From Nitrospinota bacterium (GTDB lineage Bacteria > Nitrospinota > Nitrospinia > UBA9942), in NCBI GenBank assembly GCA_016234205.1, contig JACRGN010000300.1, positions 1 to 57,607 of the forward strand: a stretch of DNA of 57,607 nt, given 5' to 3'. Each line of letters starts with the position of its first letter. The stretch's first letter is position 1. The notes beneath the pieces are model-generated. The model saw only the letters and a list, made by a program, of their open reading frames with translations. It did not search any database and was not told the origin of the DNA. The translations under genes were made by a program, and so were the position numbers. Positions 2,987 through 35,790 of this stretch are shown piece after piece.

Positions 2987-3801
2987 CAAGAGTTATTAGC
3001 TCCATTGTGTCCTTACCAATACTCCTCGCCATAATATATTTTGGAACACCATTTCATTTCTTTTTACTATTAGAGTTTGCAATATTTATCGGTTTATATG
3101 AATTTTACAGGATGATTGAAAAAGGGGGGCTCGGATGCTATAAATGGGCAGGTATTATTCTTGGAATCCTTCTTTCTCTTGCTATCTTCAAAGGGACACA
3201 TATCAATCTTGTAATTGCATCATCCGTTATAATACTCTTTATCATAAGAATATTTGAAGGAAATAATCCCCCCACCCCCACCTTTAATAAAGGGGGGCAG
3301 GAGGGATTTTCTTATGTCTCAAATACTATTTTTGGAATAGTGTATGTCAGTTTCCTTATGAGCTATCTGGGTGTTATAAGGAATAGCGGAGATAATGGGA
3401 GAGAGTTAATCTTTTTTGTTTTACTTATCACATGGATGGGGGATACAACCGCATACTATGGCGGAAAGGGTTTTGGCAAACATAAATTAGCCCCCGCCAT
3501 AAGCCCTAATAAAACTGTAGAGGGTGCAATAGCAGGATTAATGGGCAGTATAGTTGGTGCAATAATTGCAAAATTATGGTTTCTTGATATAAGCATTTTA
3601 AATGCAATTGCTGCCGGAATCTTAATCGGTGTATTTGGACAGTTTGGCGATTTAAGCGAATCTATCATAAAAAGAAATCTGCAGGTAAAGGATTCTGGAG
3701 GTATAATCCCGGGGCACGGCGGGATACTTGACAGGGTTGACAGCCTCCTATTCTCAGCCCCTGTGTTTTATTATTATTATGCGTATATTATAATGCACTG
3801 A
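2983..3801 (+). CDS. cdsA: Phosphatidate cytidylyltransferase
   Basis: Multi-TM protein; C-terminal SPNKTVEG...GDLSESIIKR...IPGHGGILDRVDS signature; overlaps uppS stop. Confidence 0.9.
   Translation: MTRVISSIVSLPILLAIIYFGTPFHFFLLLEFAIFIGLYEFYRMIEKGGLGCYKWAGIILGILLSLAIFKGTHINLVIASSVIILFIIRIFEGNNPPTPTFNKGGQEGFSYVSNTIFGIVYVSFLMSYLGVIRNSGDNGRELIFFVLLITWMGDTTAYYGGKGFGKHKLAPAISPNKTVEGAIAGLMGSIVGAIIAKLWFLDISILNAIAAGILIGVFGQFGDLSESIIKRNLQVKDSGGIIPGHGGILDRVDSLLFSAPVFYYYYAYIIMH
3267..3307. repeat. Palindromic 'ccttta-a-taaagg' repeat unit lying in-frame inside cdsA
   Basis: tccccccacccccacctttaataaaggggggcaggaggga, translated NNPPTPTFNKGGQEG; same family occurs intergenically at 12925-12948 and 50001-50038. 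Confidence 0.7.
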
Positions 3802-3872
3802 AACATAAAAATTAATGAAACCACAGATTACACAGATTTTCAAAAAAAAAGAATTAGGGTATTAGTGAATTA

Positions 3873-5042
3873 ATGAAAAAAATTTCAATCCTCGGCTCAA
3901 CAGGTTCAATAGGGGTAAATGCACTTGATGTCATTAGCAGACACCCTGATAAATTTCAGATAGTGGCTCTTGCCGCCGGTGAAAATGACTCGCTCCTCCA
4001 ATCTCAAATTGATAGATTCAAGCCAAAAATAGCAGCCCTCTTTAATGAAAAAAGCTCAGATAAATTAAAGAAGACAATAAAAGATAAGAATGTAAAGATT
4101 GTATCAGGAGTTGACGGCGTAATTGAGGCGGCTACTATTAGAGAGGCAGACATGGTCATCTCTGCCATTGTAGGTGCGGCAGGGCTGATACCAACCATCT
4201 CGGCAATAAAGGCAAAAAAAGATATTGCCCTCGCAAACAAAGAGACCCTCGTCATGGCAGGCGAGATCGTAATGAGGGAGGCGGAAGGCAAATGCAGGAT
4301 TATACCTGTTGACAGTGAACACAGTGCAATATTTCAATCGCTCACAGGAGAAAAAAGAGAAAGCATAAGAAAATTGATACTCACTGCATCAGGTGGTCCA
4401 TTTAGGAATTACCCGGAGGAACAATTTAAGGATATTAAGCCCGAAGATGCCCTTAAACACCCCAACTGGCGGATGGGTCAAAAAATAACTATAGACTCAG
4501 CTACTTTAATGAATAAGGGCTTTGAGGTTATTGAGGCAAAGTGGCTATTCGGCATAGCAGATGAAAATATAGAGGTCTTAATACACCCGCAGAGTATAAT
4601 CCACTCCCTTGTAGAATTTATTGACGGCTCTGTCCTTGCCCAGCTCGGCATCCCTGACATGAGGATACCAATCTCTTATGCATTGAACTACCCTGACAGA
4701 TTGGAGAACACATTACCTTCCCTTAATCTGGCAGAAGTAAAAAACCTTTCCTTTGAAAAACCTGATACTGAAAAATTCCCATGTCTTAAACTTGCCTTTG
4801 AGTCATTAAAGAAAGGTGAGACTATGCCGGCGGTTTTAAATGCCTCAAATGAGGTGGCAGTCAATGCCTTTTTAAATAGTGAGATTTCTTTCAATGAAAT
4901 ACCTGAAATCATAAAACAAACTATGAATGCTCATAAGGTCAGCCATGCAAAAGAAATCTCTGATATTTTAAAGGCGGACAGATGGGCAAGAGAGTATGCA
5001 AAAACCGAAATTCAAAAGTCAAAAGAACAAAAACCTAATTAA
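3873..5042 (+). CDS. dxr: 1-deoxy-D-xylulose-5-phosphate reductoisomerase
   Basis: ILGSTGSIG N-terminus, LANKE, PVDSEHSAIFQ, HPNWRMGQKITIDSATLMNKG motifs. Confidence 0.97.
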   Translation: MKKISILGSTGSIGVNALDVISRHPDKFQIVALAAGENDSLLQSQIDRFKPKIAALFNEKSSDKLKKTIKDKNVKIVSGVDGVIEAATIREADMVISAIVGAAGLIPTISAIKAKKDIALANKETLVMAGEIVMREAEGKCRIIPVDSEHSAIFQSLTGEKRESIRKLILTASGGPFRNYPEEQFKDIKPEDALKHPNWRMGQKITIDSATLMNKGFEVIEAKWLFGIADENIEVLIHPQSIIHSLVEFIDGSVLAQLGIPDMRIPISYALNYPDRLENTLPSLNLAEVKNLSFEKPDTEKFPCLKLAFESLKKGETMPAVLNASNEVAVNAFLNSEISFNEIPEIIKQTMNAHKVSHAKEISDILKADRWAREYAKTEIQKSKEQKPN

Positions 5043-5212
5043 ACCACTGAGACACTGAGGCACTGAGAAAGACTCAAAAAATAAAGACACTGAAAGACAC
5101 AGATAAATTATGATTAACACAGAAATAAAGAACCACAAAAATCATAAATAATCTGTGTAAATCCGTGTCAAAAAAGATTGGTTTTTTTCTCTGTGTCTCC
5201 GTGCCTCTGTGG
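5043..5212. repeat. Imperfect long inverted 'cactgag/ctgtg' word-repeat element between dxr and pgpA
   Basis: Left arm ccactgagacactgaggcactgag, right arm ctctgtgtctccgtgcctctgtgg; inner cacag/ctgtg words. Confidence 0.7.
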
Positions 5213-5220
5213 TAAATTTT

Positions 5221-5236
5221 TATAATTCCCTTTTCA
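5221..5236 (+). promoter_or_regulatory. TATAAT box 10 nt before pgpA ATG, no SD (candidate near-leaderless promoter)
   Basis: ctgtggtaaattttTATAATtcccttttcaATG. Confidence 0.35.
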
Positions 5237-5794
5237 ATGACACATCTTATAAAATTCATAGCCACAGGGTTTTACAGCGGTTATTCTCCAGTAGCACCCG
5301 GGACAGCAGGGTCTGTCGTCGGTGTATTAATATACCTATTAGCTTTCAGCCTTCAGCTTTCGGCTTTCAGCTATTTTTTGCTCACTATATCAATAGTATT
5401 AATTGGTATCTGGGTTTCAGGAAAGGCTGAGGAGATATTTGCAAAAGAAGAGGATGACCTCCCCGCTTCCCATTGCAATGCTTCGCAACAATGGGAGCCC
5501 TGCCCCTCCTTACGAAGGAGGGGAAAGAGGGGTGGTAAAGACTCCCAGAAGATTGTAATAGATGAGATTGCAGGGATGCTTATATCCCTATTTATGCTGC
5601 CGCATGGGTTCTGGGTGGTGTTATCAGGTTTTATAATTTTCAGGATAATTGATATTTCAAAACCTTTTTATATATTGGAAAGACTGCCAAAAGGTTTCGG
5701 GGTGATGATGGACGATGTTGCGGCAGGCATTGCAACAAATCTGATATTACGCATCTTCCTGTTCTTAACTCAAATTATGCAATTTGTCTTTTAG
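5237..5794 (+). CDS. pgpA: Phosphatidylglycerophosphatase A, with ~30-aa internal insert
   Basis: N-terminal ATGFYSGYSPVAPGTAGS and KIVIDEIAGM motifs typical of PgpA. Confidence 0.78.
   Translation: MTHLIKFIATGFYSGYSPVAPGTAGSVVGVLIYLLAFSLQLSAFSYFLLTISIVLIGIWVSGKAEEIFAKEEDDLPASHCNASQQWEPCPSLRRRGKRGGKDSQKIVIDEIAGMLISLFMLPHGFWVVLSGFIIFRIIDISKPFYILERLPKGFGVMMDDVAAGIATNLILRIFLFLTQIMQFVF
5455..5540. repeat. Two short perfect palindromes in-frame inside pgpA
   Basis: tcccattg-N13-caatggga (5468-5496) and cccctcctt-acg-aaggagggg (5503-5523); translated ...LPASHCNASQQWEPCPSLRRRGKRGG... just before the conserved IVIDE motif. Confidence 0.6.
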
Positions 5795-5802
5795 AAAATA
5801 CA

Positions 5803-7616: not shown

Positions 7617-9179
7617 ATGAGTTATTTTTTTAAAAGATTAGTAATTCTAAAAAAACCGAGATTCCTCGCTCTGCTCGGAATGACAAAACCAGAGTTCCGA
7701 GGCGTAATCTGCGGATTAATCGGTTTTTTGTTCTTTGTTTTATATAACCCCGTTTACGCCGCAGAAATAGATTACTACACCGAAGGGATGAAGCAACTGC
7801 AGATGGAGAATTATGAGGAGGCTGAGCCTCTGCTTTTAAAGGCTCATAAAAAAGAACCTGCCAACCCAAATATCACTTATTATCTTGGAGTTCTTTATAA
7901 TGCGATGGAAAATTTCAATGATTCCTTAAAATTCTTTAAAGAGACTGTTAAAATTAATCCCAACCTGCTTGAAGTGAGATATTACTTGGCGCAGGTATTG
8001 ATGATGACAGGGGATTATGACGGTGCATTGGAACAGTTTGAAGAGGCTGATAAGGTAAAACATCTCAGTATGATTACCTATTACAAGGGGATGATTTACA
8101 ACCAAAAGGGGGATTACAAAAAGGCAATAGAGCTTATAAAGTCTGCAGGAGAAGAAGATAAAAATCTCCAGCCCATTGTCCAGTTTCAGATTGGAATAAT
8201 TAATTATAATAACGGAAATCTCAAAGAGGCAAAGGCATATTTCAGGAGCCTTATCAGCCTGCATCCTAAATCCGATGAGGCGGAATTTGCCCGTCAATAT
8301 ATTACTGCCATTGAACAGATTGAGAGCATGAAAAACTGGAAAATGACCTTTGGTTATTCTTACCAATACGATGATAATGTTGTCTTAAAACCAACTGATA
8401 CCTCAGCGGCAGAAAGCATCACAAACAAGTCGGACTGGGTATCTAATCTGAATTTCGGTTTTGATTATTCAAAGTCATTTATGAAAAATGGAAACATCGG
8501 ACTTGGTTATTCATTCTCACAGAGCCTCCACGCCCTATTTACTAATTATGATATTCAGAGTCATTCTATTAATATTCTGCCTGCATATAATTTTGGCAAT
8601 TTTAATACAACTCTGATGTATAGCTACGGTTATACATATCTCGATAGGTCGGGATATTTAAGGTCTAACACAGTCAGCCCGATTTTCTCATATATCAGCG
8701 GGTCACAAATGGCACAGATAAGTTTAAAATGGCAGGATAAAGATTATATTAAACCATCCGCAGGAGATGAAAACAGGGCAGGTGCAAATTATGATGCCGG
8801 TGCAGCCTACTTCCTATTTTTAAAAGAGGGAAAAGGTTATATCAATGTTAAATACAATTACGACCGTGATTATACAAATGGGAACAACTGGAAATATAAT
8901 GGCCATAAGGGAGCGGTATCCATACTCCTCCCTGTCAGCAATAGAATCAACTTCAGCTTATCAGGAGATGGATACAGACAGATTTATGATAATACTCATT
9001 CCACCTACAGCGTAAAGAGAGATGATACCATTTACAATGCAAACACACTCATCTCAATAAACCTGCTTAAGAATTTAAAAGGGGATATTACATACGCATA
9101 TACAAGGGCATTTTCCAATACTCCTGTTTATGATTATTCAAAAAATTCGGTAAGCGTTGGATTAAATTATGTTTGGTAG
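7617..9179 (+). CDS. Outer-membrane protein: N-terminal TPR domain + C-terminal beta-barrel (Slam/DUF560-like architecture)
   Basis: ATG 7617 (or 7680) precedes a signal-like hydrophobic stretch ending YAAE; TPR-like helices follow; alternating-hydrophobic strands run from WKMTFGYSYQYDDN to the C-terminal VGLNYVW aromatic end. Confidence 0.6.
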   Translation: MSYFFKRLVILKKPRFLALLGMTKPEFRGVICGLIGFLFFVLYNPVYAAEIDYYTEGMKQLQMENYEEAEPLLLKAHKKEPANPNITYYLGVLYNAMENFNDSLKFFKETVKINPNLLEVRYYLAQVLMMTGDYDGALEQFEEADKVKHLSMITYYKGMIYNQKGDYKKAIELIKSAGEEDKNLQPIVQFQIGIINYNNGNLKEAKAYFRSLISLHPKSDEAEFARQYITAIEQIESMKNWKMTFGYSYQYDDNVVLKPTDTSAAESITNKSDWVSNLNFGFDYSKSFMKNGNIGLGYSFSQSLHALFTNYDIQSHSINILPAYNFGNFNTTLMYSYGYTYLDRSGYLRSNTVSPIFSYISGSQMAQISLKWQDKDYIKPSAGDENRAGANYDAGAAYFLFLKEGKGYINVKYNYDRDYTNGNNWKYNGHKGAVSILLPVSNRINFSLSGDGYRQIYDNTHSTYSVKRDDTIYNANTLISINLLKNLKGDITYAYTRAFSNTPVYDYSKNSVSVGLNYVW

Positions 9180-9189
9180 AATATATTTT

Positions 9190-10578
9190 ATGAGAACTAA
9201 TAGGCTTAAATTTATATTATCTCTTATTACAATTTCACTTTTTCTCCCTTTAATTATATATGCAGAGCCTGTCGGAAAAGTATCACTTTTGGAAGGCTCT
9301 GTGGATATCCTGCGAAAAGGAAAGACCACTGCTGAAACGGCAGAAATAACTATGCCTGTCAATATCGGGGATATTATAAGGACAAAAAGCAATTCAAAGG
9401 CAGAGATTAAATTTATTGACGACAGCATGATTAGAATTGCAGAAAAGAGCAGGATAGAAATAAAGGAATATCTCTTTGAAAAGGATGGTGCAAAAAGGAA
9501 GGGAACAATAGGCCTCTTGAGGGGAAAAATTAGGTCTATTGTAAGTAAGGTTGTTTCCCAGCAACATGATTATAATATCGTTACCAAGACTGCTGTAGCT
9601 GGTGTTAGAGCGACTGACTTTTTTGTAATCTCCCAACCCCTCTCTACTCAGGTTATTGTTAAGGAAGGAATTGTTGCAGTCAAGAATATCTCTCCCAAAA
9701 TAGTGGGAGAGGTTCTGGTCAAGATGAATCAGATGACTAATGTTGTTCAGAATACCCCTCCCCCGCCGCCGGTAAACGTTAAGGCTGAAGATATGAAGGG
9801 TTTAACTGAAGCCACGGAGCCAGCGAAAGTTGAAAAAAAGAAAATGGAAGATAAGGAAAAGGCACCGGAAAAGACTGAACCATCTAAACAACCGGGTAAG
9901 AAAGAACCTGAAGGGAAAAAAGAGCCTGAAGGTAAAAAGGAAGGAATGCCTCCTGCTGGGAAAGAAGGCAAGCAGCCGCCAGGAATGGAAGGTAAGCCTC
10001 CTCCAGGTATGGCAGGAATGCCCCCACCGGGAATGGCTGGTATGCCTCCAGGAATGGAGGGTAAGCCTCCTCCGGGTATGGAAGGAATGCCACCACCGGG
10101 AATGGCTGGTATGCCTCCAGGAATGGAGGGTAAGCCTCCTCCGGGTATGGAAGGAATGCCTCCACCTGCTGGAATGGCTGGTATGCCCCCAGGAATGGAG
10201 GGGAAACCGCCTCCAGGCATGGGAGGAATACCGCCACCGGGTATGACAGGCATGCCGGGTATGCCTATGGGAATGCCAGGTATGCCGGGAATGACAGGTA
10301 TGGCTGGTATGCCTATGGGAATGGTGGGAATGCCGGGAATGATGGGGGCTTATCCTATGCCGGGAATGATGGGGGCTTATCCTATGCCGGGAATGATGGG
10401 GGCTTATCCTATGCCGGGAATGATGGGGGCTTATCCTATGCCGGGAATGATGGGGGCTTATCCTATGCCGGGTATAACTGGTCCATATATTGGAACTGTA
10501 CCACCCCCTAATATTCCAATTACAGATATAAATCCAGCCTTATTAAAACCGAAGGTAAAAATCAGAGTAGAATTCTGA
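9190..10578 (+). CDS. Secreted FecR-domain protein with long Met/Pro/Gly-rich tandem-repeat C-terminal half
   Basis: Signal peptide (MRTNRLKFILSLITISLFLPLIIYAEP), FecR-like VGKVSLLEGSVDILRKG...GDIIRT...IKF, then K/E/P-rich and PPGMxG / MMGAYPMPG repeats. Confidence 0.7.
   Translation: MRTNRLKFILSLITISLFLPLIIYAEPVGKVSLLEGSVDILRKGKTTAETAEITMPVNIGDIIRTKSNSKAEIKFIDDSMIRIAEKSRIEIKEYLFEKDGAKRKGTIGLLRGKIRSIVSKVVSQQHDYNIVTKTAVAGVRATDFFVISQPLSTQVIVKEGIVAVKNISPKIVGEVLVKMNQMTNVVQNTPPPPPVNVKAEDMKGLTEATEPAKVEKKKMEDKEKAPEKTEPSKQPGKKEPEGKKEPEGKKEGMPPAGKEGKQPPGMEGKPPPGMAGMPPPGMAGMPPGMEGKPPPGMEGMPPPGMAGMPPGMEGKPPPGMEGMPPPAGMAGMPPGMEGKPPPGMGGIPPPGMTGMPGMPMGMPGMPGMTGMAGMPMGMVGMPGMMGAYPMPGMMGAYPMPGMMGAYPMPGMMGAYPMPGMMGAYPMPGITGPYIGTVPPPNIPITDINPALLKPKVKIRVEF
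9960..10329 (+). repeat. Coding tandem repeats, ~69-72-bp units (GMEGKPPPGMEGMPPPGMAGMPP)
   Basis: Units start at 10051, 10120 and 10192, with degenerate copies on both sides. Confidence 0.8.
10330..10464 (+). repeat. Perfect 27-bp x5 coding tandem repeat (MPGMMGAYP)
   Basis: atgccgggaatgatgggggcttatcct repeated five times without mismatch. Confidence 0.95.
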
Positions 10579-12985: not shown

Positions 12986-13001
12986 AATTCAGTCTTTGTG
13001 C

Positions 13002-13526
13002 ATGGATAAAAGTGAGTTTGAAAAAGGGAAACAAATTGCCTATCGCTTTCTTTCTTACAGACCTCGTAGTAAAAAGGAGGTTGAAAAAAAATTAAAAGAG
13101 AAAAAAATCTCTGGAGAAAATATCTCAAATATCATCAGCCTTTTAGAAAAAAATAATTATTTAAACGATAGAGAGTTTACACTCAACTGGATCAAATACA
13201 GGATGGAGAATAAACCCGGTGGTAGAAGGTCTCTGGAATATGAATTAAGGGAAAAGGGGATAGATTCAGAAATAATAAAAGAGTCTCTTGATGAAGTTTA
13301 TACAGGTGAATTTGATGAGTATGATGTGGCAGTCAGATTGGCAGAGAAAAAAATATCTTCTTTGAAAAAGAAACAACCCCCTCAATCCCCCTTAACAAAG
13401 GGGGAATTAGGGGGTTATCTCAAAAGGAGACTCTTCAGTTATCTGCATAGAAAGGGATTTTCATTCAGTCTAATTGAAAAAGTAATGTCTGACTTATTCA
13501 ACGCAGAATCAATCGAATCTATATAA
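13002..13526 (+). CDS. recX: RecA regulator RecX
   Basis: Position after recA; three-helix-repeat pattern (ALRFLSYRPRS-like AYRFLSYRPRSKKEV, YLNDREF); ATG at 13002. Confidence 0.8.
   Translation: MDKSEFEKGKQIAYRFLSYRPRSKKEVEKKLKEKKISGENISNIISLLEKNNYLNDREFTLNWIKYRMENKPGGRRSLEYELREKGIDSEIIKESLDEVYTGEFDEYDVAVRLAEKKISSLKKKQPPQSPLTKGELGGYLKRRLFSYLHRKGFSFSLIEKVMSDLFNAESIESI
13373..13416. repeat. Palindromic 'PLxKGG' repeat unit in-frame inside recX
   Basis: aacaaccccctcaatcccccttaacaaagggggaattagggggtt, translated KQPPQSPLTKGELGGY. Confidence 0.75.
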
Positions 13527-14320: not shown

Positions 14321-14608
14321 AGCCACAGAGGACACAGAGGGAAAAACTAAATTTTTTTGACACAGATTTACACTGATTATTGATACCTGTAATATTAATC
14401 TCCTATATCTGTGTATTTTTGTCATTCCGCACTTGATGCGGAATCCAGTATTTTGTATAAGTATCTGGATTCCCATTTTCACGGGAATGACGGACATGGG
14501 ACATTTGTTATACAGGAGTCAATAGTTATGATTTTTTCTGTGCCAATCATAATTTATCTGTGTCTTTCAGTGTCTTTGTTTTTTGTCTTTCTCTGTGTTC
14601 TCTGTGGC
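14321..14608. repeat. Composite nested repeat: ctgtg-word arms around a gtcattcc...gggaatgac cruciform core (14421-14491)
   Basis: Outer ccacagaggacacagagg / ctctgtgttctctgtgg; core gtcattccgcacttgatgcggaatccag...ctggattcccattttcacgggaatgac. Confidence 0.85.
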
Positions 14609-17628: not shown

Positions 17629-17655
17629 CCCCTCACATAAAACTTATGTGCGGGG
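17629..17655. terminator. Second copy of the CCCC(G/T)CACATAA hairpin
   Basis: cccctcacataa-aac-ttatgtgcgggg then tttatcttttt; abuts the stop of the ATP-grasp gene. Confidence 0.55.
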
Positions 17656-17656
17656 T

Positions 17657-20854: not shown

Positions 20855-20859
20855 TAGTT

Positions 20860-21163
20860 GGACACAGATGGACACAGAAAATCAGGATACTTAAATACAG
20901 GAACACGAATTACACGAATAGACGAATAGCACGAATAAAAACTAATTTAGGAAATTCAATATTAGAGATTGCTTCGCCTTCGGCTCGCAATGACATGCAA
21001 GTCAAAGTGTCATTGCGAGGGGCGAAGCCCCGAAGCAATCTAATTTATTTTTTGCTTTATTAATTTGTGTAATTCGTCCATTCGTGTCATTCGTGTTCAA
21101 GTCTTTTGTTTTTTTTGGTTGCGGCTTTGCAACGCTGTGTGTATCTGTGAAAATCTGTGTCCC
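20860..21163. repeat. Triple-nested palindromic element (ctgtg arms > cacgaat arms > cattgcgag core)
   Basis: Outer 20860-20885 / 21136-21163; middle 20901-20937 / 21066-21098; core 20965-21042 gattgcttcgccttcggctcgcaatgac...gtcattgcgaggggcgaagccccgaagcaatc. Confidence 0.9.
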
Positions 21164-21177
21164 ATTTAATTTAAAGA

Positions 21178-22755
21178 ATGATAAGAATTATAGAAGATAT
21201 ACTAAATATCGGCTACCCGATTGACCCGTCTCCGATTATAAAAGATGAGGGATTTCGTAACAGCCTCGCAACTGTATATTTCAGACGCATAAAGGTTATT
21301 GCCTCATGTGCAATTATCCTGTATCTCCTCTCAAACTCAATTGATTATCCCCTCCCCTCTGAAAAATTTCTTTATGTCTTGTTTTTTAAAATAATTGCCA
21401 TAACATTTTATCTCTTAACAATATTCCTTTTGCCGCCAGATAAAGGAGTTGTCTTCTATAATATCGTTGGCCTCTCACAGCTATTCACTGCCTCTATAAT
21501 TAACGCAATCATAATCAGGCTCACAGGCGGCTATGATTCATACTGGGCTATTACCATAGGGATGGCAATAATGGTAGCATCTCTTTATCCCTGGCCCATC
21601 AGATTTATGCTCCCCGCCATGTCCGCCGCATACCTATGTTATCTTCTCCCGTCACTCTTTTTAGATGACATAATAAACTTCCATCCATTCATTACAAACA
21701 ATTTCTATCTCATAGGTATTCTGTTTGTATCACTCTTTATCTCATTCATACAGTATCGCTATCTGATGGTTGAATTTTATCTATACTCAAGACTGGAAAA
21801 GTCCAAAGATACCACTGACAACATTTTATCAGAAAGCATTAAACTTCAGGAAAGACTCAAGGAATCAAAGGAGGAACTCCTGCTCAAAAAGACCGAGGCA
21901 GAAGAAAAGGCAAGGGAGATGGAAAAGACTGTATCGGAGCTTTCAAATATAAAGCTGGCTTTATTAAATATAATGGAAGACCTGTATAATTCAAAAAAGA
22001 GGGTGGAAGACACAAATATTGAGTTAAATAAATACAACCGACTCAAATCGGAATTCCTTGCCAATATCAGCCATGAACTTAGAACACCTCTTTCATCTGT
22101 TATAGGCTTTAGCAAATTACTTCTGGATGACGATAATCTTGATCCCGACTCAAGAAAAAAGTATCTATCCATAATATTTCAAAGCGGCAACAGCCTGATG
22201 AATCTTATTAGCGACCTTATGGATATCTCAAAGATTGAGGCAGGGGAAATGGAATTAGAAATTAACCCTGCAAACATAAATCTTATAATATCAGAGACTG
22301 TTTTTTCTCTGCAGCCTATGATAACAGAATATAACCATACTGTTGAGGAAGAGCTTGCCCCCTCCTTAAAAGAGATTGAGGCTGACCATAGAAGAGTTCA
22401 GCAGATTCTTGCCAATCTCATGGTAAATGCTATAAAATATACTAAATACGGCGGAAAAATTACAGTTGCAAGTATAGATTCGGGTGATGAGGTATGGATA
22501 ACGGTTAAAGATACAGGAATCGGGATAGCACCTGAAGACAGGGAGATTATATTTGACAGGTTCAGACAGATTGATGGTTCCCTTACAAGAAAGGCAGGGG
22601 GGATAGGAATAGGATTGGATTTAACGAGGTCTCTTGTAAGGATGCACGGCGGCAGGATATGGGTCAACAGCGAGGTGGGAAAAGGGAGTGCATTTACAGT
22701 TACACTGCCGAAGAAACATAGTTGCAAGATGCAAGATGCAAGTTACAAGACTTGA
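21178..22755 (+). CDS. Membrane sensor histidine kinase (multi-TM N-terminus, coiled coil, HisKA, HATPase_c)
   Basis: H-box [13 protein letters not shown]; N, G1 and G2 boxes ([23 protein letters not shown]). Confidence 0.88.
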
Positions 22756-23148
22756 AACCTCTATGGAAGAGTTAAAGGGCTTTAAAAAATTAATTGTATG
22801 GCAGAAGGCTTACGATTTCGTATTGATGGTTTACAAATATACACAGGAATTTCCTTCTTCCGAGCTATACGGTTTAACATCACAGATAAGAAGGGCTACA
22901 GTATCTATTTCGGCAAATATTGCCGAAGGCAGTGAAAGGCAGCACAAAAAAGAATTTTTACAATTTTTATCTATAGCAAGAGGTTCTCTTGCAGAGGTAG
23001 AAACATATTTAATGTTAGTTAAAGATTTAGGTTATATCAGTAAAGATAGATTTGTTGAGTTAGAGAAACAAAGACAGGAGATTGGAAGATTATTGAGAGG
23101 ATTATATAAGTCTTTATCTTGAAACTTGCAACTTGCATCTTGCAACTT
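22721..23148. repeat. 21-bp 'tgcaag' stem enclosing the four-helix-bundle gene
   Basis: GTTGCAAGATGCAAGATGCAA (22721-22741) pairs with TTGCAACTTGCATCTTGCAAC (23126-23146), one mismatch; cttgaaac at both 22751-22758 and 23118-23125. Confidence 0.8.
22763..23122 (+). CDS. Four-helix-bundle protein (23S rRNA intervening-sequence protein family)
   Basis: About 119 aa; FKKLIVWQKAYDF...QIRRATVSISANIAEG...ARGSLAEVETYL pattern typical of TIGR02436/PF05635. Confidence 0.85.
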   Translation: MEELKGFKKLIVWQKAYDFVLMVYKYTQEFPSSELYGLTSQIRRATVSISANIAEGSERQHKKEFLQFLSIARGSLAEVETYLMLVKDLGYISKDRFVELEKQRQEIGRLLRGLYKSLS

Positions 23149-23870: not shown

Positions 23871-24524
23871 ATGGTTGAGATTATCCTTGTCATAATAGCA
23901 AGTTATCTTATCGGCTCTATATCACCAAGCATAATCCTCGGAAAAATATTAAAAGGGATAGATATTCGTGAACATGGCAGTGGTAATGCAGGCTCAACGA
24001 ATGCCTTTAGAGTTCTTGGCAAATGGGCAGGTATAACAGTCCTCCTATTGGATATTTTTAAGGGCTATTTTGCAGTTAAGTTTATAAGCCCTCTATCAGG
24101 AGAAAATCCAGTCATAGTAAGCTTGCCGAATCTATCCCCTACCCTTGTCGCCATCCTATCAGGTTTTGCAGCCATTATAGGGCATGTATGGACACTCTTT
24201 CATTCATTTAAGGGTGGAAAGGGGGTAAATACTGCAACAGGGGTTCTTTTAGCATTGATTCCAATACCAACTATTTTGGCTGCAGGCATCTTTTTAATTG
24301 TGCTACTCACAACAAGATATGTATCCCTTGGCTCAATGCTTGCCTCTCTATCACTCCCAATAATATTGATAATAATGTCATTGCGAGCCAAAGGCGAAGC
24401 AATCCCTTCGGAGCTGATTATATTTGCGGCTATCATCCCCATCTTTATTATCTATACACACAGAGCAAATATAAAGAGACTGATGAGAGGAGAAGAGAAT
24501 AAAATAAAATTAGGCAGGGGTTAA
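23871..24524 (+). CDS. plsY: Glycerol-3-phosphate acyltransferase PlsY
   Basis: YLIGSISPS, GSGNAGSTN, HVWTLFHSFKGGKGV, HRANIKRL motifs. Confidence 0.92.
   Translation: MVEIILVIIASYLIGSISPSIILGKILKGIDIREHGSGNAGSTNAFRVLGKWAGITVLLLDIFKGYFAVKFISPLSGENPVIVSLPNLSPTLVAILSGFAAIIGHVWTLFHSFKGGKGVNTATGVLLALIPIPTILAAGIFLIVLLTTRYVSLGSMLASLSLPIILIIMSLRAKGEAIPSELIIFAAIIPIFIIYTHRANIKRLMRGEENKIKLGRG
24377..24406. repeat. Half 'cattgcgag' repeat unit in-frame inside plsY
   Basis: gtcattgcgagccaaaggcgaagcaatccc, translated SLRAKGEAIP; same family as the 20965-21042 core. Confidence 0.7.
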
Positions 24525-26234
24525 TTCCTTTATTAATCCTCTAACTTGCTTTTCCATATCAGAGACAGGCACAATAATTCTTTTATTACTCTTTCTTATC
24601 TTAATTTCCGCCTTCCCTTCCTTAAGATTTTTTTCACCTATAATAATCTGAATCGGTATTCCTATGAGGTCCGCATCCTTAAACTTTATCCCGGGTCTTT
24701 CATCCCTGTCATCCACTAAAACCTCAATACCTGAGTCTGTTAATGTCTGATAAATATTTTCAGAGGTATGGACAACATCTGTATTCTTCATATTTAATGA
24801 GAGGACAATCGCCTGAAATGGTGCAATGGGCATGGGCCAGATAATACCGTTATCATCGTGATTCTGCTCTATTGATGCGGCTACAGTCCTCCCCACACCT
24901 ATCCCATAGCATCCCATCACAATTAACTTTTCCTTGCCATTTTCATCCAGATATGTTGCCTTTAATGACTCACTATATTTTGTCCCGAGTTTAAACACAT
25001 GCCCCACCTCTATACCCTTATAAACCCGGAGTGTCCCATTGCATCTCGAACACAGATCACCATCCTTCACCATCCTTATATCTCCTGATAAATCTATTTT
25101 AAAATCTGTGTTTATATTCACATTGACCCTATGAGCGTCTTTAAGATTTGCACCTGTAACAAAATTTTTTATCCCCATGACTGAATTATCAGCCACTATT
25201 TTTAAATTCAATCCAACAGGACCCGCAAAACCTGATGGTGCAGAAGTAACATCCTCTACAACCTTTTCCCCTGCAAGATTTATTACATCACACTTAAGCA
25301 GTTTTTTTAGCTTTGCCTCATTCACATCATGGTCGCCCCTTACAAGTGCCGCAACAATTCCGTTCTCTGTCTCAAATATAAGTGTCTTAACTATCCTTTC
25401 CTTTTCCACCTTTAAAAACTCTGATACTTCGTCTACACTCTTTTTATCAGGTGTACTAACAACCTCCATAGGTTTTAATTCTTCTCTTGCATCTTGCATC
25501 TTGCATCTTGCATCTTGTCTCACTTCCGCCTTCTCTACATTTGCCGAATAATCACAGCTTTCGCAGGTAGCTACTGAATCCTCCCCCGAATCTGCAAGGA
25601 CCATAAACTCATGTGAGAAACTCCCCCCTATCTGCCCTGTCTCAGCCTCTACTGCCCTGAACTTAAGCCCGCATCTCCTGAATATATTACAGTATGCGTC
25701 ATACATCTTCCTGTATGTCTCCTCCACCCCTTTTTCATCCAGGTCATAACTATATCCATCCTTCATTGTAAATTCCCTGCATCTCATAACCCCGAATCTT
25801 GGACGGATTTCATCCCTGAATTTTGTCTGTATCTGATAGAGATTCAAGGGGAGCTGTCTGTATGACCTTACCTCCCTCCTGACTAAATCGGTGATGACCT
25901 CCTCATGGGTCGGACCATAACAGAAGTCTCTATCGTGCCTGTCCTTTACCCTGAGCAGCTCTCTTCCATAAAGATTCCATCTCCCGCTCTCCTGCCACAA
26001 TTCTGCAGGCTGAATACTCGGAAGAAAAACCTCCTGTGCCCCTGCCCTGTTCAATTCTTCCCTGATGATATTTTCAACCTTCCTCTGTGCCATAAGCCCT
26101 AATGGAAGGAGGTCATATATTCCAGCGGCAAGCTTCCTTATCATCCCCGCCCTGACCATGAGCTTATGGCTAATCACCTCTGCATCAGACGGTGCTTCTT
26201 TTAATGTTGGTAAAAACATTTTTGAAAATCGCAT
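24510..26234 (-). CDS. proS: Prolyl-tRNA synthetase (bacterial type with editing insertion)
   Basis: Class II aaRS motifs (FRDEIRPRFGVMRCREF, GIEVGHVFKLG, GCYGIGVGR). Confidence 0.98.
   Translation of the reverse strand: MRFSKMFLPTLKEAPSDAEVISHKLMVRAGMIRKLAAGIYDLLPLGLMAQRKVENIIREELNRAGAQEVFLPSIQPAELWQESGRWNLYGRELLRVKDRHDRDFCYGPTHEEVITDLVRREVRSYRQLPLNLYQIQTKFRDEIRPRFGVMRCREFTMKDGYSYDLDEKGVEETYRKMYDAYCNIFRRCGLKFRAVEAETGQIGGSFSHEFMVLADSGEDSVATCESCDYSANVEKAEVRQDARCKMQDAREELKPMEVVSTPDKKSVDEVSEFLKVEKERIVKTLIFETENGIVAALVRGDHDVNEAKLKKLLKCDVINLAGEKVVEDVTSAPSGFAGPVGLNLKIVADNSVMGIKNFVTGANLKDAHRVNVNINTDFKIDLSGDIRMVKDGDLCSRCNGTLRVYKGIEVGHVFKLGTKYSESLKATYLDENGKEKLIVMGCYGIGVGRTVAASIEQNHDDNGIIWPMPIAPFQAIVLSLNMKNTDVVHTSENIYQTLTDSGIEVLVDDRDERPGIKFKDADLIGIPIQIIIGEKNLKEGKAEIKIRKSNKRIIVPVSDMEKQVRGLIKELTPA
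25486..25517. repeat. 7-bp 'cttgcat' tandem (about 4.5 units) in-frame inside proS
   Basis: cttgcatcttgcatcttgcatcttgcatcttg, translated (minus) QDARCKMQDAR; same word family as the arms at 22721/23126. Confidence 0.8.
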
Positions 26235-26242
26235 ATAGAATA

Positions 26243-26412
26243 AAATAAAAAGATTAAGGAGAAAGGGGGAAAAGGAAAATTAGGAGAATAAAATATATAT
26301 ATAAGGAAGCCATGAAGCCATGAATTTATTAAAATTTTCATGGATTCCTGGATTCCTAATAAAATTAGTTTTTCTTCTCCATTTCTCCATCTTCTTCTCC
26401 CTTTCTCCTTAT
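26243..26412. repeat. Nested element: ggagaa arms around a gaagccatga/tcatggattc hairpin
   Basis: aaagattaaggagaaaggggg...aaggaagccatgaagccatgaa...ttcatggattcctggattcct...ttctccatttctccatcttcttctccctttctcctta. Confidence 0.85.
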
Positions 26413-26418
26413 AGATTT

Positions 26419-27465: not shown

Positions 27466-27480
27466 TTTATAGAAATTATA
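27466..27480 (-). promoter_or_regulatory. TATAAT box 9 nt before ispG ATG, no SD
   Basis: Minus strand reads ggttttataatttctataaaATG immediately after the hairpin element. Confidence 0.4.
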
Positions 27481-27483
27481 AAA

Positions 27484-27600
27484 CCATTAAGGAGAAAGGG
27501 GGAAGTGGGAGAGATGGGGGAAAATAAATTCTTTTTAAAAATATTTCCTTTCTCCCTTTCCTCAATTTCCCATTTCTCCTTAATCTTTTTCTTGTTTTAT
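27484..27600. repeat. 'ggagaa/ttctcc' inverted word-repeat element
   Basis: cattaaggagaaagggggaagtgggagagatggggg...tttctccctttcctcaatttcccatttctccttaatcttttt. Confidence 0.85.
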
Positions 27601-27685
27601 TTTTTACTATAAAACAGTTTTAAACTCCATGTCAAAACAAATATAATATTGACTGTGTGTGCTTAAATATGTTACTTATTTAACC

Positions 27686-28805: not shown

Positions 28806-31514
28806 ATGGCTAATTTGGAAAAGGTTTTTGAACCAAAGAAGATAGAAGAAAGATGGTATAAATTCTGGCTGGAAAAGGGATATTTCCATGCAGATGAAAA
28901 CTCAGACAAGAAATCTTACTGTATTGTCATCCCCCCTCCAAATATAACAGGTGCACTCCATATAGGCCATGCATTAAACAACACCATTCAGGATATCCTC
29001 ACTCGATGGAAGAGGATGGAGGGCTTTAACACCCTCTGGATGCCCGGCACTGACCACGCAGGTATAGCAACACAGAATGTTGTGGAAAGGCAGCTACTGT
29101 CAGAAGGGACAGACAGACATAAGATTGGCAGGGAAAAATTTGTTGAGAGGGTCTGGAAATGGAAGGAAAAATCAGGTGGGGATATAATAAGACAGCTTAA
29201 GAGACTCGGTGCATCCTGTGACTGGGAGAGGGAGAGATTTACAATGGATGAAGGGCTCTCAAAGGCTGTGAGGGAGGTCTTTGTCCGACTCTATGAAGAG
29301 GGATTGATATACAAGGGTGACAGGCTTATAAACTGGTGTCCCCGATGCCATACAGCCCTATCTGACTTAGAGGTTGAGCATGAGGAACAAAAAGGACATC
29401 TGTATCATATAAAATATCCTGTAAAAAATACTTCAGATTTTATAACAATTGCAACAACACGTCCAGAGACAATGCTTGGGGATACAGCAGTAGCAGTAAA
29501 CCCTGACGATGAGAGATATAAAAATTTTACTGGAAAAACTGTTACCCTTCCTATAGTCAACAGAGAGATTCCTGTAATTGCAGATTCCTATGTGGATAAG
29601 AGCTTTGGGACAGGGGCATTAAAGATTACACCTGCCCATGACCCTAATGACTTTGAGATCGGAACAAGGCACAACCTGCTTCAGGTAAAGGTAATTGCCG
29701 AAGATGGGACAATGAATGAAAATGCAGGAAAATATAAGGGATTAGACAGGTTCAAGTGCCGAAAGGCATTGTTACGCGATTTAGAAAAGGAAGGATTTTT
29801 ACTAAAGGTTGAGGATTATATACATTCTGTCGGTAAATGCTACCGATGTAAAACAATTGTGGAGCCAAATCTATCAAAGCAGTGGTTTGTCAAGATAAAA
29901 CCACTCTCCGAGCCTGCCCTTGAGGCTGTGAAGGATGGAAGAATCAGGATAATACCTAAGGGATGGGAGAATACATACTTTGAATGGATGAATAATATAA
30001 AGGACTGGTGTATCTCAAGACAAATCTGGTGGGGACACAGGATACCGGCATGGAATTGTAAAGATTGCAGTGAGATAACAGTCTCAAAAACTGATATAAC
30101 GGAATGCAGTAAATGTAAAAGCAAAAATATTGAACAGGAGAGTGATGTCCTTGATACATGGTTTTCTTCTGCCCTCTGGCCATTCTCCACACTCGGCTGG
30201 CCGGAGAATACAAAAGAGCTTAAGGTCTTCTATCCCACTTCTGTTTTAGTGACAAGTTTTGATATCTTATTTTTCTGGGTTGCAAGGATGATTATGATGG
30301 GTCTCAAGTTCAGAGGCGATATCCCATTCAGGGATGTTTACATCCATGCCCTCGTGAGAGATGCAGAGGGACAGAAGATGAGCAAATCAAAGGGGAATGT
30401 CATAGACCCCCTCATAATGATGGAGAAATACGGAACTGATGCATTCAGATTCACACTCGCTGCCTTTGCGGCTCAAGGCAGGGATATAAAACTCTCTGAA
30501 GAAAGGATAGAGGGATATAGAAATTTTGCAAACAAAATCTGGAATGCCTTCAGGTTTGCAATGATGAACTTGGAGGATTTTAAGGATAACATCCTGAGCC
30601 AGCCGAAGGATACAGTCTCCACTTCCGATATAACCCGTTTAAATCTCCGGCTCTCTGACAGATGGATTTTGAGCAGGCTGCAAAAGGCTATACGAGATAC
30701 AAGGAAAGGGCTTGAGGAATATAAATTCAATGAGTCGGCAGGAATTATCTATCAGTTTTTCTGGCATGAGTTCTGTGACTGGTATATAGAAATTATAAAG
30801 CCAAGACTTGCCTCATCTGCAGAAGAAAGGAAAACTGCACAATCGGTATTATTATATGTAATGGAGAACAGCCTTAGGCTACTCCATCCGTTTATGCCGT
30901 TTATAACTGAAGAACTATGGCAGCAGCTGCCCCTGCTTGAATCCAGCAGGGGGGAAAGTATCATGGCTGCTGAATATCCTGTGTATAATGAGGCATTAGT
31001 AAATGATGATTTTGAGAGAGAGATGATACTTATCATGGAGATATCACGGGGGATAAGAAATATCAGGAGTGAAATGAATATATCCCTTGCAAAAAAACTT
31101 GATGTCCTATTAAGGACAGGAGATGAGAATAAACTACAGATGATTGAGAGGCAGAATTTATATATATCCGAGCTGTCCAGATTAAAAAACCTGAGTGTTA
31201 CAAAAAACGGAAAAGAGCCAAAGCCTGTCCCTGAAGGTCTTTATCAGGGAATGGCTGCTACTGCTGTAGTGGAGAATATTGAGATTTTTGTCCTTCTTGA
31301 AGGTGTCATTGATATCCATAAAGAGAGAGACAGGCTCAGCAGGGAACTTGAGAAGATCAACGCGGATGTTGCAACACTGAACAAGAGATTATCAAATCGG
31401 GACTTTATAAACAGGGCTCCTAAAGATGTTGTAGAAAAGGACAGGGAAAAATACCAGTCTCTGACTGTGATGGCAGAAAAGATTCAGCAGAATCTATCAA
31501 GGCTTGAGATATAA
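28806..31514 (+). CDS. valS: Valyl-tRNA synthetase
   Basis: [13 protein letters not shown] (HIGH), KMSKSKGN (KMSKS), C-terminal coiled coil. Confidence 0.99.
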
Positions 31515-32762: not shown

Positions 32763-32764
32763 TA

Positions 32765-33766: not shown

Positions 33767-33792
33767 TTACCAAATATTTTATATTAAATTTT

Positions 33793-34287
33793 TTATGAAC
33801 CTTTTTTGCTCTTGTAGAAGGTATCAAAAGTAACAATCCCCTGTTTTTTAAGAATCTTTTCCCCCTTAACAAGGATTGCAAGGTCATTCTTTTCCCTTAC
33901 CTGCGAGAATACAATTCCAGTTTCCCTGAATTTATCGTCATGCTCCCTGAGAGCAAGAAAATCTCCTTTGTTTTTCCAGCAGTAATATCGTACCGATGTT
34001 GTATAGTGGGCTGTATCATCCTTTATCTTTTTGATTTCAGAATTTGTCAGAATCTTGCCATTCTTATCACACCACCTACCCTCCAAATCACCCGGGGTCA
34101 AAGGCAATGCCTTCTTCATATCTACGAGACACAGCTTTTTGTCTTCAGGAGGAAGCTGGTTAAAGAGTGATTTTCGTTCGTCAGGGTTTAAGCTCTTCTG
34201 TCTCTCAAGCTTCTCCTGCCTCTCCTTCTCCATTGAAGAAAGGACATCCGTATGGTTCTGCTTTGTATAAAAAGAGGGTAAGGTCAT
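33793..34287 (-). CDS. Hypothetical protein, 164 aa, K/E-rich; no family recognised
   Basis: ORF only; begins 14 nt after tRNA-Leu on the same strand. Confidence 0.45.
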   Translation of the reverse strand: MTLPSFYTKQNHTDVLSSMEKERQEKLERQKSLNPDERKSLFNQLPPEDKKLCLVDMKKALPLTPGDLEGRWCDKNGKILTNSEIKKIKDDTAHYTTSVRYYCWKNKGDFLALREHDDKFRETGIVFSQVREKNDLAILVKGEKILKKQGIVTFDTFYKSKKGS

Positions 34288-34304
34288 AATCTATAAATCA
34301 ATTA

Positions 34305-34390
34305 TGCCGAGGGCCGGAATCGAACCGGCACGGCAGTTTCCCGCCGAGGGATTTTAAGTCCCTTGCGTCTACCTATTCCGCCACCCCGGC
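34305..34390 (-). tRNA. tRNA-Leu (anticodon UAA), long variable arm, no encoded CCA
   Basis: Minus strand GCCGGGGTGGCGGAATAGGTAGACGCAAGGGACTTAAAATCCCTCGGCGGGAAACTGCCGTGCCGGTTCGATTCCGGCCCTCGGCA folds as a cloverleaf; anticodon loop CTTAAAA; GTTCGATTC T-loop. Confidence 0.93.
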
Positions 34391-34563
34391 AAATAAAGAT
34401 TTTCTTAAAATACAATAAGTTATAATTTTATAAAGTGTGTCATATCGTGTCATATAGAGTCGAAACTGATTACATTTGCAATCAATTATCACAAAAAAGT
34501 AATCAAAAAGCAATCATTTTTCAGTTAAGCAATAAACCCAAATTATGCACGAACGATTTAGAT

Positions 34564-34692
34564 AAGACCTTATGTCCCTGTAGCAACTGTCAAATTTTTA
34601 CTTTTCTATGGATGGTAAAAAGTGAAAATTTCCACAGTTCAGACAGACATGGACGGCTGTCTGAACGACAAGCGGAAGGGACATAAGGTCTT
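34564..34692. ncRNA. Unassigned 129-nt structured element: 16-bp closing stem and two hairpins whose loops share ATGGA(T/C)GG
   Basis: aagaccttatgtccct / agggacataaggtctt perfect; hairpin 34592-34631 (14 bp, one G-U); hairpin 34638-34665 (9 bp perfect). Confidence 0.35.
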
Positions 34693-34785
34693 TCACTCAT
34701 TTTTTGGGATAAACTATAGATGGGATAATGATGTCATATACTATCTTGGAGTAAAATTTAATGATTCAGATGAAAGCAACCTTAC

Positions 34786-35790
34786 TCATCCCCCAATCAT
34801 TGACATAGATTGTTCAATAGGGATACATTTGTCATTTGAGAACTGATGCCCCTGAGGTTTATTCTGTATAATTTTTATAATAATCTCTTTGAGGGACTCA
34901 TCACTAATTCCTGACCGAATATAATCTCTTAAATCTATTCCATCTTTATAACCCAGACACAACCTTAATATTCCTTCTGCAGTCAGTCTTACCCTGTTGC
35001 AGGATTCACAGAAATGCTGTGTTATCGGCGAGATGAAGCCGATTTTGATTGCGGATTGCGAATTGCGGATTGTGGGTTTTATAGTGAAGTATGAAGCAGG
35101 ACCGCCTCCTGATGACTTTGCAGGCTCTAATTCAAAATGGCTTTCAACTAAAGATTTTACCTCCTTTATGGAGATAAACCTTTCTTTGCTTAAATTCACA
35201 ATACGACGCACGGGCATACACTCTATGAATCTTATATTTGCACTGTTTTCTATGGCGAAATGGACAATGTCAATAAGCTCATTATCATTCAATCCCCTCA
35301 TTACAACAGTATTGAGATTAACAGGCGTCAAACCAGCATTTACTGCCTCCTTGATACCCTCTAATACATCTTTTAGTTCTCCACCTCCACATACCGTTTT
35401 AAAAGTTTCAGGTTTTAGCGTGTCAAGACTGATATTTACCCTCTTTAATCCTGCATTCTTTAAATCAATAGCATATTTAGATAGGAGAGTGGCGTTTGTT
35501 GTCATAGCAAGGTCATTTATTCCGTTAATATGAGATAATTGATTAATCAGCGATACCATATCCTTTCTGACCAGAGGTTCTCCACCGGTTATCCTTACAC
35601 GGCTCACGCCCATATCAGCAAAACACCTTACGATTCTGGTAATCTCCTCAAATCTAAGTATTGCCCTCCGTCTTGAATGACTATCGCTATCCTTCGGTGT
35701 GCAGTAGAGACATTTCAGGTCACACCTGTCTGTAACAGATATACGGATGTATTCAATTCTTCTATTATATTTGTCAATAAGCAAATTCAT
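34786..35790 (-). CDS. moaA: GTP 3',8-cyclase (Moco biosynthesis protein A)
   Basis: CDLKCLYC radical-SAM cluster, ITGGEPL, C-terminal FCESCNRVRLTAEG cluster. Confidence 0.96.
   Translation of the reverse strand: MNLLIDKYNRRIEYIRISVTDRCDLKCLYCTPKDSDSHSRRRAILRFEEITRIVRCFADMGVSRVRITGGEPLVRKDMVSLINQLSHINGINDLAMTTNATLLSKYAIDLKNAGLKRVNISLDTLKPETFKTVCGGGELKDVLEGIKEAVNAGLTPVNLNTVVMRGLNDNELIDIVHFAIENSANIRFIECMPVRRIVNLSKERFISIKEVKSLVESHFELEPAKSSGGGPASYFTIKPTIRNSQSAIKIGFISPITQHFCESCNRVRLTAEGILRLCLGYKDGIDLRDYIRSGISDESLKEIIIKIIQNKPQGHQFSNDKCIPIEQSMSMIGG
35046..35075. repeat. 'gattgcg' word repeat in-frame inside moaA
   Basis: gattgcggattgcgaattgcggattgtgg, translated (minus) PTIRNSQSAIK between the conserved PASYF and GFISP segments. 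Confidence 0.6.

Follow-up and report, generated by a model that had tools for sequence, protein, structure and literature searches.

Small repeats of three kinds lie in frame within conserved genes of a Nitrospinota bacterium

Can the small repeats that fold into hairpins between bacterial genes also sit in frame within conserved genes, and by what process would they come to be there? This question was raised by a 57,607-nucleotide stretch from the genome of an uncultivated Nitrospinota-like bacterium (contig JACRGN010000300.1, G+C approximately 39%; hereafter the window), whose nearest named relatives are Nitrospinae/Nitrospinota metagenome-assembled genomes (MAGs), e.g. RIFCSPLOWO2_01_FULL_39_10. 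An initial annotation, made without database searches, had proposed that words of intergenic palindromic elements recur within seven genes as lineage-specific insertions tolerated in loops. The seven segments do lie within a few bases of where it had placed them, in frame and free of stop codons, and its gene names were confirmed. The genome is crowded with small repeats of three kinds, which are probably non-autonomous repeat DNA whose copies persist within genes only if they keep the frame and are tolerated. The observation was partly confirmed and its interpretation partly supported. The seven host genes, as named by NCBIfam, are:

2983-3801, cdsA
5237-5794, pgpA
12996-13526, recX
21178-22755, histidine kinase
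23871 (conserved start) to 24524, plsY
24510-26234 (-), proS
34786-35790 (-), moaA

The segments were compared with the syntenic loci of relatives (L081-L085 and L167-L174), which were obtained by protein searches and contig look-ups and whose host proteins are 82-97% identical to those of the window. The loci were picked for carrying the affected genes and are therefore a biased sample. An artefact, in the form of chance similarity, metagenomic mis-assembly or open reading frames (ORFs) laid over non-coding DNA or pseudogenes, is very improbable and was largely refuted. The identity of the host genes extends over their full length with the family motifs retained, and the same insert-bearing alleles were found again in independent assemblies (ENA, JGI and NCBI), so that they are not products of assembly. 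Shuffle controls gave an expectation of zero matches, and nine period-7 arrays of at least three copies were observed in ORFs against 0.15 in codon-shuffled genes. What favours an artefact concerns gene starts: some N-terminal array overlaps hinge on the choice of start codon (as in ORF 52699-54378, upstream of the second ATG), and in the plsY ORF as first listed, 24 codons precede the conserved start.

Family A hairpins consist of C-runs, an AT-rich loop and G-runs, and were found at a minimum of five sites. Family B is an imperfect palindrome of approximately 31 bp that mostly occurs as an inverted doublet folding at about -43 kcal/mol; its layout is that of a REPIN-like inverted doublet (REPIN, REP doublet forming hairpin; REP, repetitive extragenic palindrome). 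The third kind comprises tandem arrays of 7-10-bp words, which are not palindromes; as a rule they make up the arms of hairpins nested in one another between genes. Nearly every spacer consists of such nested hairpins (with CACAGAT, GGAGAAA, CACGAAT and other words as arms), some of which enclose a compact palindrome. Family A, family B and the heptamer arrays all enter genes, and the proposal that several unrelated repeat families do so in one genome was upheld. Two intergenic copies served as references:

20965-21044, family-B intergenic copy: two inverted units of approximately 31 bp forming a long hairpin, a REPIN-like doublet
50001-50038, family-A intergenic copy, with which the recX and cytochrome copies are compared

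The family-B doublet folds at -43.2 kcal/mol (z -6.8) and has an orthologous copy in L167, and the family-A copy folds at -18.3 kcal/mol (z -4.8). Over 224 kb from twelve relatives, 6/10 family-B units and 8/11 family-A hairpins lay inside long ORFs, counts that come from biased loci and include orthologous copies repeatedly. The elements are open in only three to four of the six frames, which indicates that they are not adapted to code and fits selective filtering. An Rfam scan returned tRNA only, the hairpins matching no known RNA family, and a terminator scan left the in-gene hairpins unflagged while flagging an intergenic family-A fragment after recA.

Hairpin inserts in cdsA, pgpA and recX

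The strongest cases are three hairpin inserts, for each of which empty sites were found among the relatives. They are listed together with a heptamer array that lies upstream of the pgpA insert:

3265-3306 (+), cdsA: family-A hairpin of 42 bp, encoding NPPTPTFNKGGQEG
5341-5372 (+), pgpA: heptamer array AGCTTTC x4.6, encoding AFSLQLSAFSY, part of a predicted helix
5447-5536 (+), pgpA: composite insert of 90 bp, 30 residues
13371-13421 (+), recX: family-A double hairpin of 50 bp, encoding QPPQSPLTKGELGGYL

The cdsA element is carried by the window and L085 and is lacking from L081, L082 and L083. It displaces 15 unrelated bp (ASDNA) of the relatives, for a net gain of 27 bp, and its RNA is predicted to fold at -23.6 kcal/mol (z -2.2). 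The element shares 40 of its 42 positions with the L085 copy, while identity is 85% over the remainder of the gene and 73% at third positions. No second copy of this unit was found in the window at up to 3 mismatches; what it shares is the architecture only.

The pgpA insert is composite, with a family-A-like hairpin as its outer part and a 38-bp palindrome (5465-5502) nested inside. Relatives with proteins of 149-154 residues lack all 30 residues, L084 has the outer hairpin alone (57 bp, 19 residues), and the window and P0001 have both the outer and the inner part. This distribution shows that the insert arose in two nested steps. The whole insert folds at -42.5 kcal/mol (z -4.8). In the AlphaFold model, for which the homologue alignments were used as input (as for moaA), it falls in the stretch that separates a long helix from the conserved KDSQKIVIDE block, with predicted local distance difference test (pLDDT) values below 50 at residues 84-103; a peptide across its junction would read ...DLPASHCNASQQWEPCPSLR. 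In the window, the inner palindrome has no second copy at up to 3 mismatches and the outer copy has no close twin. Copies related to the cdsA, inner pgpA or moaA units do occur in the relatives. The AGCTTTC array of the same gene has an orthologous array in L081 and is kept across the close clade.

For recX, the net gain is 51 bp relative to L085 and L169 and 30 bp relative to L168. Positions 13373-13405 matched the intragenic copy at 47970-48002 with no mismatch, and the intergenic copy at 50001-50033 with two, in 29 specified bases (0.00 expected in each case, 100 shuffles). The element folds at -29.5 kcal/mol (z -5.2).

Relatives lacking the cdsA, pgpA, recX and moaA inserts are 85-91% identical outside the insert, and the boundaries follow the repeat. 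Every net length change is a multiple of three, and the conserved downstream sequence stays in frame. When checked by orthologue alignment, the description of the seven segments as lineage-specific insertions held for these four genes; in plsY and proS the loop or linker is of normal length, and the kinase segment is not an insertion. The term palindromic suits cdsA, pgpA and recX, which fold strongly, and not the half unit of plsY or the tandem heptamers of proS and moaA, leaving four of the seven at most. In terms of structure, pgpA and moaA place the added residues in low-confidence AlphaFold loops, as had been suggested; in plsY and proS there is no net insertion. The alignments of RecX and CdsA to PDB structures end at the insert, and its position was consequently not placed.

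Segments in plsY, proS, moaA and the histidine kinase

The remaining four segments derive from a family-B half unit and from heptamer arrays. They are listed with the gene that follows the kinase:

22721-22755 (+), C-terminal tail of the histidine kinase, read from the left TGCAAGA arm (22723-22750)
22770-23122, four-helix-bundle gene TIGR02436, directly downstream of the histidine kinase
22770-23148 (+), the TIGR02436 gene together with the inverted right-hand arm of the array (23118-23148), a cassette between kinase and response regulator
24376-24406 (+), plsY: family-B half unit, encoding MSLRAKGEAIP
25485-25517 (-), proS: perfect array (TGCAAGA) x4.7, encoding QDARCKMQDAR in a variable linker just before the editing domain
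35047-35072 (-), moaA: array (CGCAATC) x3.7, encoding TIRNSQSAI

Two copies, one intergenic (20965-20995) and one intragenic (47254-47284), each agree with the plsY segment at 29/31 positions (0.00 expected, 100 shuffles); the segment shows no significant fold (z -0.4). The element is common to L167 and L169 and absent from L168, L173 and L174. It is 30/31 identical to the L169 copy, in a gene that is 82% identical overall and 65% at third positions. Reading the loop as an insertion was tried, based on its being 7 residues longer than in the Aquifex structure (5XJ5), and was rejected since close orthologues share the longer loop.

At the proS site, every close relative also carries an array. 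Across the six genomes compared (the window, L167, L168, L169, L173 and L174), five different perfect heptamers were found, CAAGATG, CAAGGGG, CAGTGGT, CAGTCAC and CAGAGCG, each in approximately four copies. The TGCAAGA array of the window matches the arrays at 22723-22750 and 23117-23144 (0.00 expected, 100 shuffles). For the single pair formed by proS and the kinase, chance was a possible source of the shared word; it was rejected after the word had been met at two more non-orthologous sites and in view of the vocabulary test described below. Four of the five proS-site words recur at non-orthologous sites of the clade, mostly in intergenic hairpin arms. The adjoining spacers behave differently from one another: between proS and ispG (26235-26418) the window and L167 hold wholly different array modules at 95% identity of the prolyl-tRNA synthetase (ProRS), and the spacer between ispG and the regulator (27466-27658) is identical between them over the whole compared length. 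An exact look-up of the window's ProRS gave no match. The coding proS arrays keep about four copies as the word changes, and the intergenic modules are swapped wholesale, not resized.

The moaA array adds a net 18 bp at a site left empty in L170, P0244-6 and every distant orthologue. In L171 the same site carries a perfect array, CAGCAAT x4, and another site carries two tandem family-A hairpins. In the AlphaFold model, the array forms a loop between strands 232-237 and 249-253, with pLDDT below 50 at residues 241-244. No second copy of the GATTGCG array was found in the window at up to 3 mismatches, and the tandem heptamers of proS and moaA gave no meaningful RNA fold. Within the window, the recurrence of intergenic words that had been noted was verified for recX, plsY and proS, with 0.00 expected in shuffles, and was not found for cdsA, the inner pgpA palindrome and moaA.

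The kinase segment had been placed between conserved blocks; it proved instead to be a 9-residue C-terminal read-through into the intergenic array. The kinases of relatives end in other array-encoded tails (RGKV in L167, KRSKSLKV in L169). The kinase-regulator spacer is a plain array hairpin in L167, L169 and L174, and the TIGR02436 gene is absent from it in L167, L168, L169, L173 and L174. A gene of this family (TIGR02436/PF05635, '23S rRNA intervening sequence protein') was seen between inverted heptamers twice, at 22723-23148 of the window, with the word TGCAAGA, and at 300-720 of L081, with the words CAGTGAT and CAGTGGT (arrays 324-581). The cassette looks like an insertion into the loop of a hairpin.

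The arrays as a class were assessed with Tandem Repeats Finder (TRF), by which 28/47 arrays of period 7-10 lay in the non-coding 10% of the window, an approximately 15-fold concentration. Over the 224 kb from twelve relatives, 59 heptamer arrays formed 21 same-word pairs, about five of them orthologous, against 2.2-2.5 expected and a maximum of 11 in 2000 simulations. A word vocabulary is common to sites and genomes across the clade.

These data bear on a purely local origin, by which slippage and template switching (quasi-palindrome correction) would act on resident sequence with no movement between loci. Several features would suit it: the last moaA array unit resembles the resident GCTATCA of the empty allele, which makes local array slippage plausible there; arrays occupy the same proS site in six genomes; the proS words partly track relatedness (CAAGATG and CAAGGGG in the window and L167, CAGT-- words in L168, L169 and L174); and several valS indels, described below, are one-off small hairpins outside any family. 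It is nevertheless rather unlikely as the general explanation, since unlinked loci share nearly identical family-A and family-B copies of 27-31 bases where chance predicts 0, four of the five words from the proS site are found at non-orthologous sites, and the vocabulary overlap is far beyond chance. The proS-ispG spacer, fully different beside an identical neighbour, is also at odds with it; together with the shared vocabulary, this swap argues for exchange between loci in the case of the arrays.

Further in-gene cases and other repeats of the spacers

Repeat-derived residues were found in at least five further genes; at least twelve ORFs in 57.6 kb carry them. The additional features are:

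30930-30954 (+), valS: small hairpin CCCCTGCT-TGAATCC-AGCAGGGG, neither family A nor family B
47209-47290 (-), multihaem cytochrome ORF 47021-48388: complete family-B doublet, read as IEIASPSARNDRKSKSVIARSEATKQSKL
47790-47848 (-), the same ORF: ACAGAAG arrays
47955-48002 (-), the same ORF: family-A hairpin and adjoining GGGCAAG array, QPPQSPFIKGEGQGAS
51673-51700 (-), C-terminal tail NPPLPTGEREG of ORF 51673-52263, which ends inside a C-run/G-run hairpin
54264-54297 (-), TTACTGC x4.9 array supplying the hydrophobic signal-peptide core of a cytochrome c/EB_dh protein (ORF 52699-54378)
56554-56584 (-), TGTATTC x4.4 array in an N-terminal signal-peptide-like segment of ORF 55902-56606

In the multihaem cytochrome gene, the family-B doublet, the family-A hairpin and the ACAGAAG arrays are all in frame, and the doublet folds at -42.5 kcal/mol (z -7.4, from the window sequence alone). 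An unbiased indel scan against the relatives showed that the valS hairpin is a net +12 bp relative to three relatives, and that several other valS indels are small one-off hairpins of no family. Another valS loop, at about residue 206, is repeat-free in the window but occupied by an array, GGGGCAA x4.6, in L167 and by a hairpin of family A in L169. Conversely, a tetratricopeptide repeat (TPR) protein of L085 contains a half family-B unit (+13 residues) that is lacking in the window. TTACTGC was observed as the signal-peptide core of three unrelated secreted proteins: the cytochrome c/EB_dh protein, a DUF4390 protein and a solute-binding protein, the latter two in L171 (118-200 and 9900-10001).

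Such cases raise the possibility that the in-gene copies are functional and selected, as mRNA structures, as word-specific protein sites or as peptide modules such as signal-peptide cores. This seems improbable, despite the conservation of in-gene elements above that of the surrounding gene, the stable hairpins of -23 to -43 kcal/mol predicted within mRNAs, and the three TTACTGC signal peptides. Close relatives lack the inserts while their host proteins are otherwise unchanged, one valS loop is held by different families, and the inserts occupy low-confidence, variable regions; gene conversion among copies may explain the conservation as well.

Several further repeats were seen in the spacers and genes. 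The spacer 20855-21177 is onion-like, with GGACACAGAT/ATCTGTG outer arms, CACGAAT/ATTCGTG arms next and the family-B doublet as its core; its right-hand CACGAAT arm is deleted in L167. Another hairpin family, CCCCGCACATAA-loop-TTATGTGCGGGG, has at least three copies (2138-2162, about 17630-17656 and 41085-41112) and resembles an intrinsic terminator, the first copy being followed by a T-run. A further REP-like palindrome pair lies at 14425-14495 (GTCATTCCGCACTTGATGCGGAATCC ... GGATTCCCATTTTCACGGGAATGAC), and a relative of it sits in a different spacer, between proS and ispG of L169. In the FecR-domain protein at 9169-10578, tandem repeats of 18-69 bp, among them a perfect 27-bp x5.3 array, make up a long C-terminal region rich in Pro, Gly and Met; the copy number differs from that in L085.

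A search of the 32-residue family-B peptide against 1.84 billion representative proteins, which is a low-power search, gave only five matches (P0361-P0365). Most of these are ORFs or tails running through tandem similar repeats, in genomes that look unrelated. Peptides resembling VIARSEATKQS and IASPSARND, which are family-B-like translations, occur in these matches in tandem within predicted proteins or in C-terminal tails. Judging from these translations, the family-B core motif may not be unique to this lineage and is possibly widespread.

Origin of the segments and comparison with known systems

The preferred explanation, non-autonomous repeat DNA retained in genes only where in frame and tolerated, can be put as a series of steps. 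Copies of all three repeat kinds would arise or land throughout the genome. Selection would then purge those coding copies that break the frame, add a stop codon or strike a constrained position. The survivors would have a net length that is a multiple of three, no stop in the host frame and a tolerant location, i.e. loops, domain linkers, signal peptides, the flanks of membrane helices or termini. They would be translated as extra or replacement residues and be largely neutral to the protein. Families A and B may spread by a copy-and-insert process supplied in trans, as suggested by the near-identical unlinked copies and the clean empty sites, and the arrays may turn over by slippage or misalignment together with replacement by words from a common pool. 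Excision of the inserts at the RNA level was also weighed and is unlikely, all insertions being multiples of three without a stop codon.

A number of observations weigh against this explanation or restrict it. The cdsA, pgpA and recX junctions show no target-site duplication when compared with empty sites, and no transposase or REP-associated tyrosine transposase (RAYT) was found among the 18 window proteins scanned, from 57.6 kb of the genome; mobility is accordingly deduced from the copies and the empty sites. The gain in plsY is just one residue, and a loop this long is found in orthologues across many phyla, so that resident sequence was replaced and nothing of note was inserted. The linker that holds the proS array is hypervariable and of normal length relative to 80 distant orthologues among the matches listed from genome and metagenome contigs (up to 62% identity), and the likeness of the last moaA unit to the resident sequence counts here too. 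In nucleotide conservation, the in-gene elements of cdsA and plsY surpass their host genes, unlike simple neutral passengers; this hints that copies homogenise or convert one another, or that the DNA or RNA is under selection. The proS array is likewise unlike a neutral passenger, being perfect in six genomes with five words although one-unit slippage would frameshift an essential gene. Translation of the inserts is predicted from the reading frames, and the DNA covered amounts to 57.6 kb of the genome itself and about 166 kb from relatives.

The proS data invite a bolder proposal, that the heptamer arrays are the products of active, lineage-specific array copying or conversion and not ordinary microsatellites. 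With a 7-bp unit, only three-unit changes keep the frame, and stepwise turnover through one-unit slippage should therefore not be viable in proS. In addition, there are five proS words in six genomes, four of which recur elsewhere, and a module swap at 95% ProRS identity. If true, conversion would amount to templated replacement from a shared vocabulary with the frame kept, and it might be tied to the inverted-array TIGR02436 cassettes (window 22723-23148, L081 324-581). On present evidence this proposal is rather unlikely.

Among known systems, the closest in behaviour are the Rickettsia palindromic elements (RPEs; Ogata et al. 2000, 2002), which, as outlined in PMC10969869, are of approximately 150 bp and lie in frame in Rickettsia housekeeping genes. 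The present elements share with RPEs the presence of several palindromic families, both intergenic and in frame in unrelated housekeeping genes, their absence from orthologues of relatives, fold-compatible positions and, in the biased sample, a large share of intragenic copies. Palindromic in-frame insertions of the RPE type were found in cdsA, pgpA and recX, and a non-palindromic one in moaA; loop positions were found in the pgpA and moaA models and, for proS, in a variable linker. The differences lie in size (units of 31-50 bp and a largest composite of 90 bp, versus about 150 bp, where an RPE would be expected to span about 100-150 bp and encode a conserved peptide of about 30-50 residues), in architecture (G/C-run hairpins or a REPIN-like doublet, coexisting with non-palindromic heptamer arrays that enter ORFs) and in the host, which is a free-living Nitrospinota-like bacterium and not an obligate intracellular alphaproteobacterium. 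The likeness is one of behaviour. The Rickettsia parallel drawn at the outset is thus apt as a description of behaviour and fails as a statement of membership, given 31-90 bp against approximately 150 bp and a different phylum.

GTAG- and CGTC-tagged REPs are known from several phyla, with some copies intragenic (Di Nocera et al. 2013; PMC3733652); they lie mostly downstream of genes, and those within genes occupy the N- or C-terminus or comparable positions of orthologues (PMC3733652). Imperfect palindromes of 20-40 bp, present as singletons or inverted dimers, are a feature in common with REPs and REPINs, as in the family-B doublets at 20965-21044 and 47209-47290. Unlike REPs, families A and B lack GTAG or CGTC at their ends (a single family-B copy contains GACG, and only internally), and a high fraction lies in ORFs, 6/10 and 8/11 in this biased sample. 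Unlike MITEs (miniature transposable elements with inverted repeats), no direct duplication flanks the cdsA, pgpA and recX inserts, and the cdsA element replaced 15 bp.

Intergenic heptamer arrays that occasionally enter ORFs have been described as TAACTGA in Beggiatoaceae and as short tandemly repeated repetitive (STRR) sequences in cyanobacteria (PMC4679880). The arrays studied here resemble these, and long simple sequence repeats in general, in having 2-6 heptamer copies and a strongly intergenic distribution, with a few overlapping ORF ends or sitting inside in a stop-free orientation. They differ in that many words coexist and are paired as inverted arrays into nested hairpins, and in that arrays lie inside the essential genes proS, moaA and valS, with a word that varies at one orthologous coding site. 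The tandem repeats of Borgs, at least as presented in bioRxiv 10.1101/2022.05.18.492195, are fast-evolving, of independent origin in ORFs and create disordered protein regions. On that account, they too add low-complexity peptide segments within ORFs; unlike the Borg case, the hosts here are chromosomal housekeeping genes.

The elements behave like systems of the RPE, REP and MITE type but differ from them in size, tag and duplication features, respectively, and are not demonstrated members of any. A literature search found no paper on in-gene repeats of this kind in Nitrospinota. As intragenic REPs and RPEs are already documented, the present case is a denser and more varied one of a behaviour known from Rickettsia and other bacteria. 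The unexpected part is the five perfect heptamers at a single proS site in six genomes, drawn from words shared across the clade.

From a practical standpoint, repeat-derived segments can mislead gene calling, orthologue alignment and quality checks of MAGs. In biological terms, few ways are known by which conserved proteins gain new peptide segments, and the capture of selfish repeats in frame is among them. Most work on it has been done in Rickettsia; the present lineage seems a far denser natural experiment, offering clean empty sites, a nested two-step intermediate, one loop struck by different families and arrays that serve as signal-peptide cores. It also raises the question of how an array whose unit is not a multiple of three stays perfect, yet changes its word, inside an essential gene.

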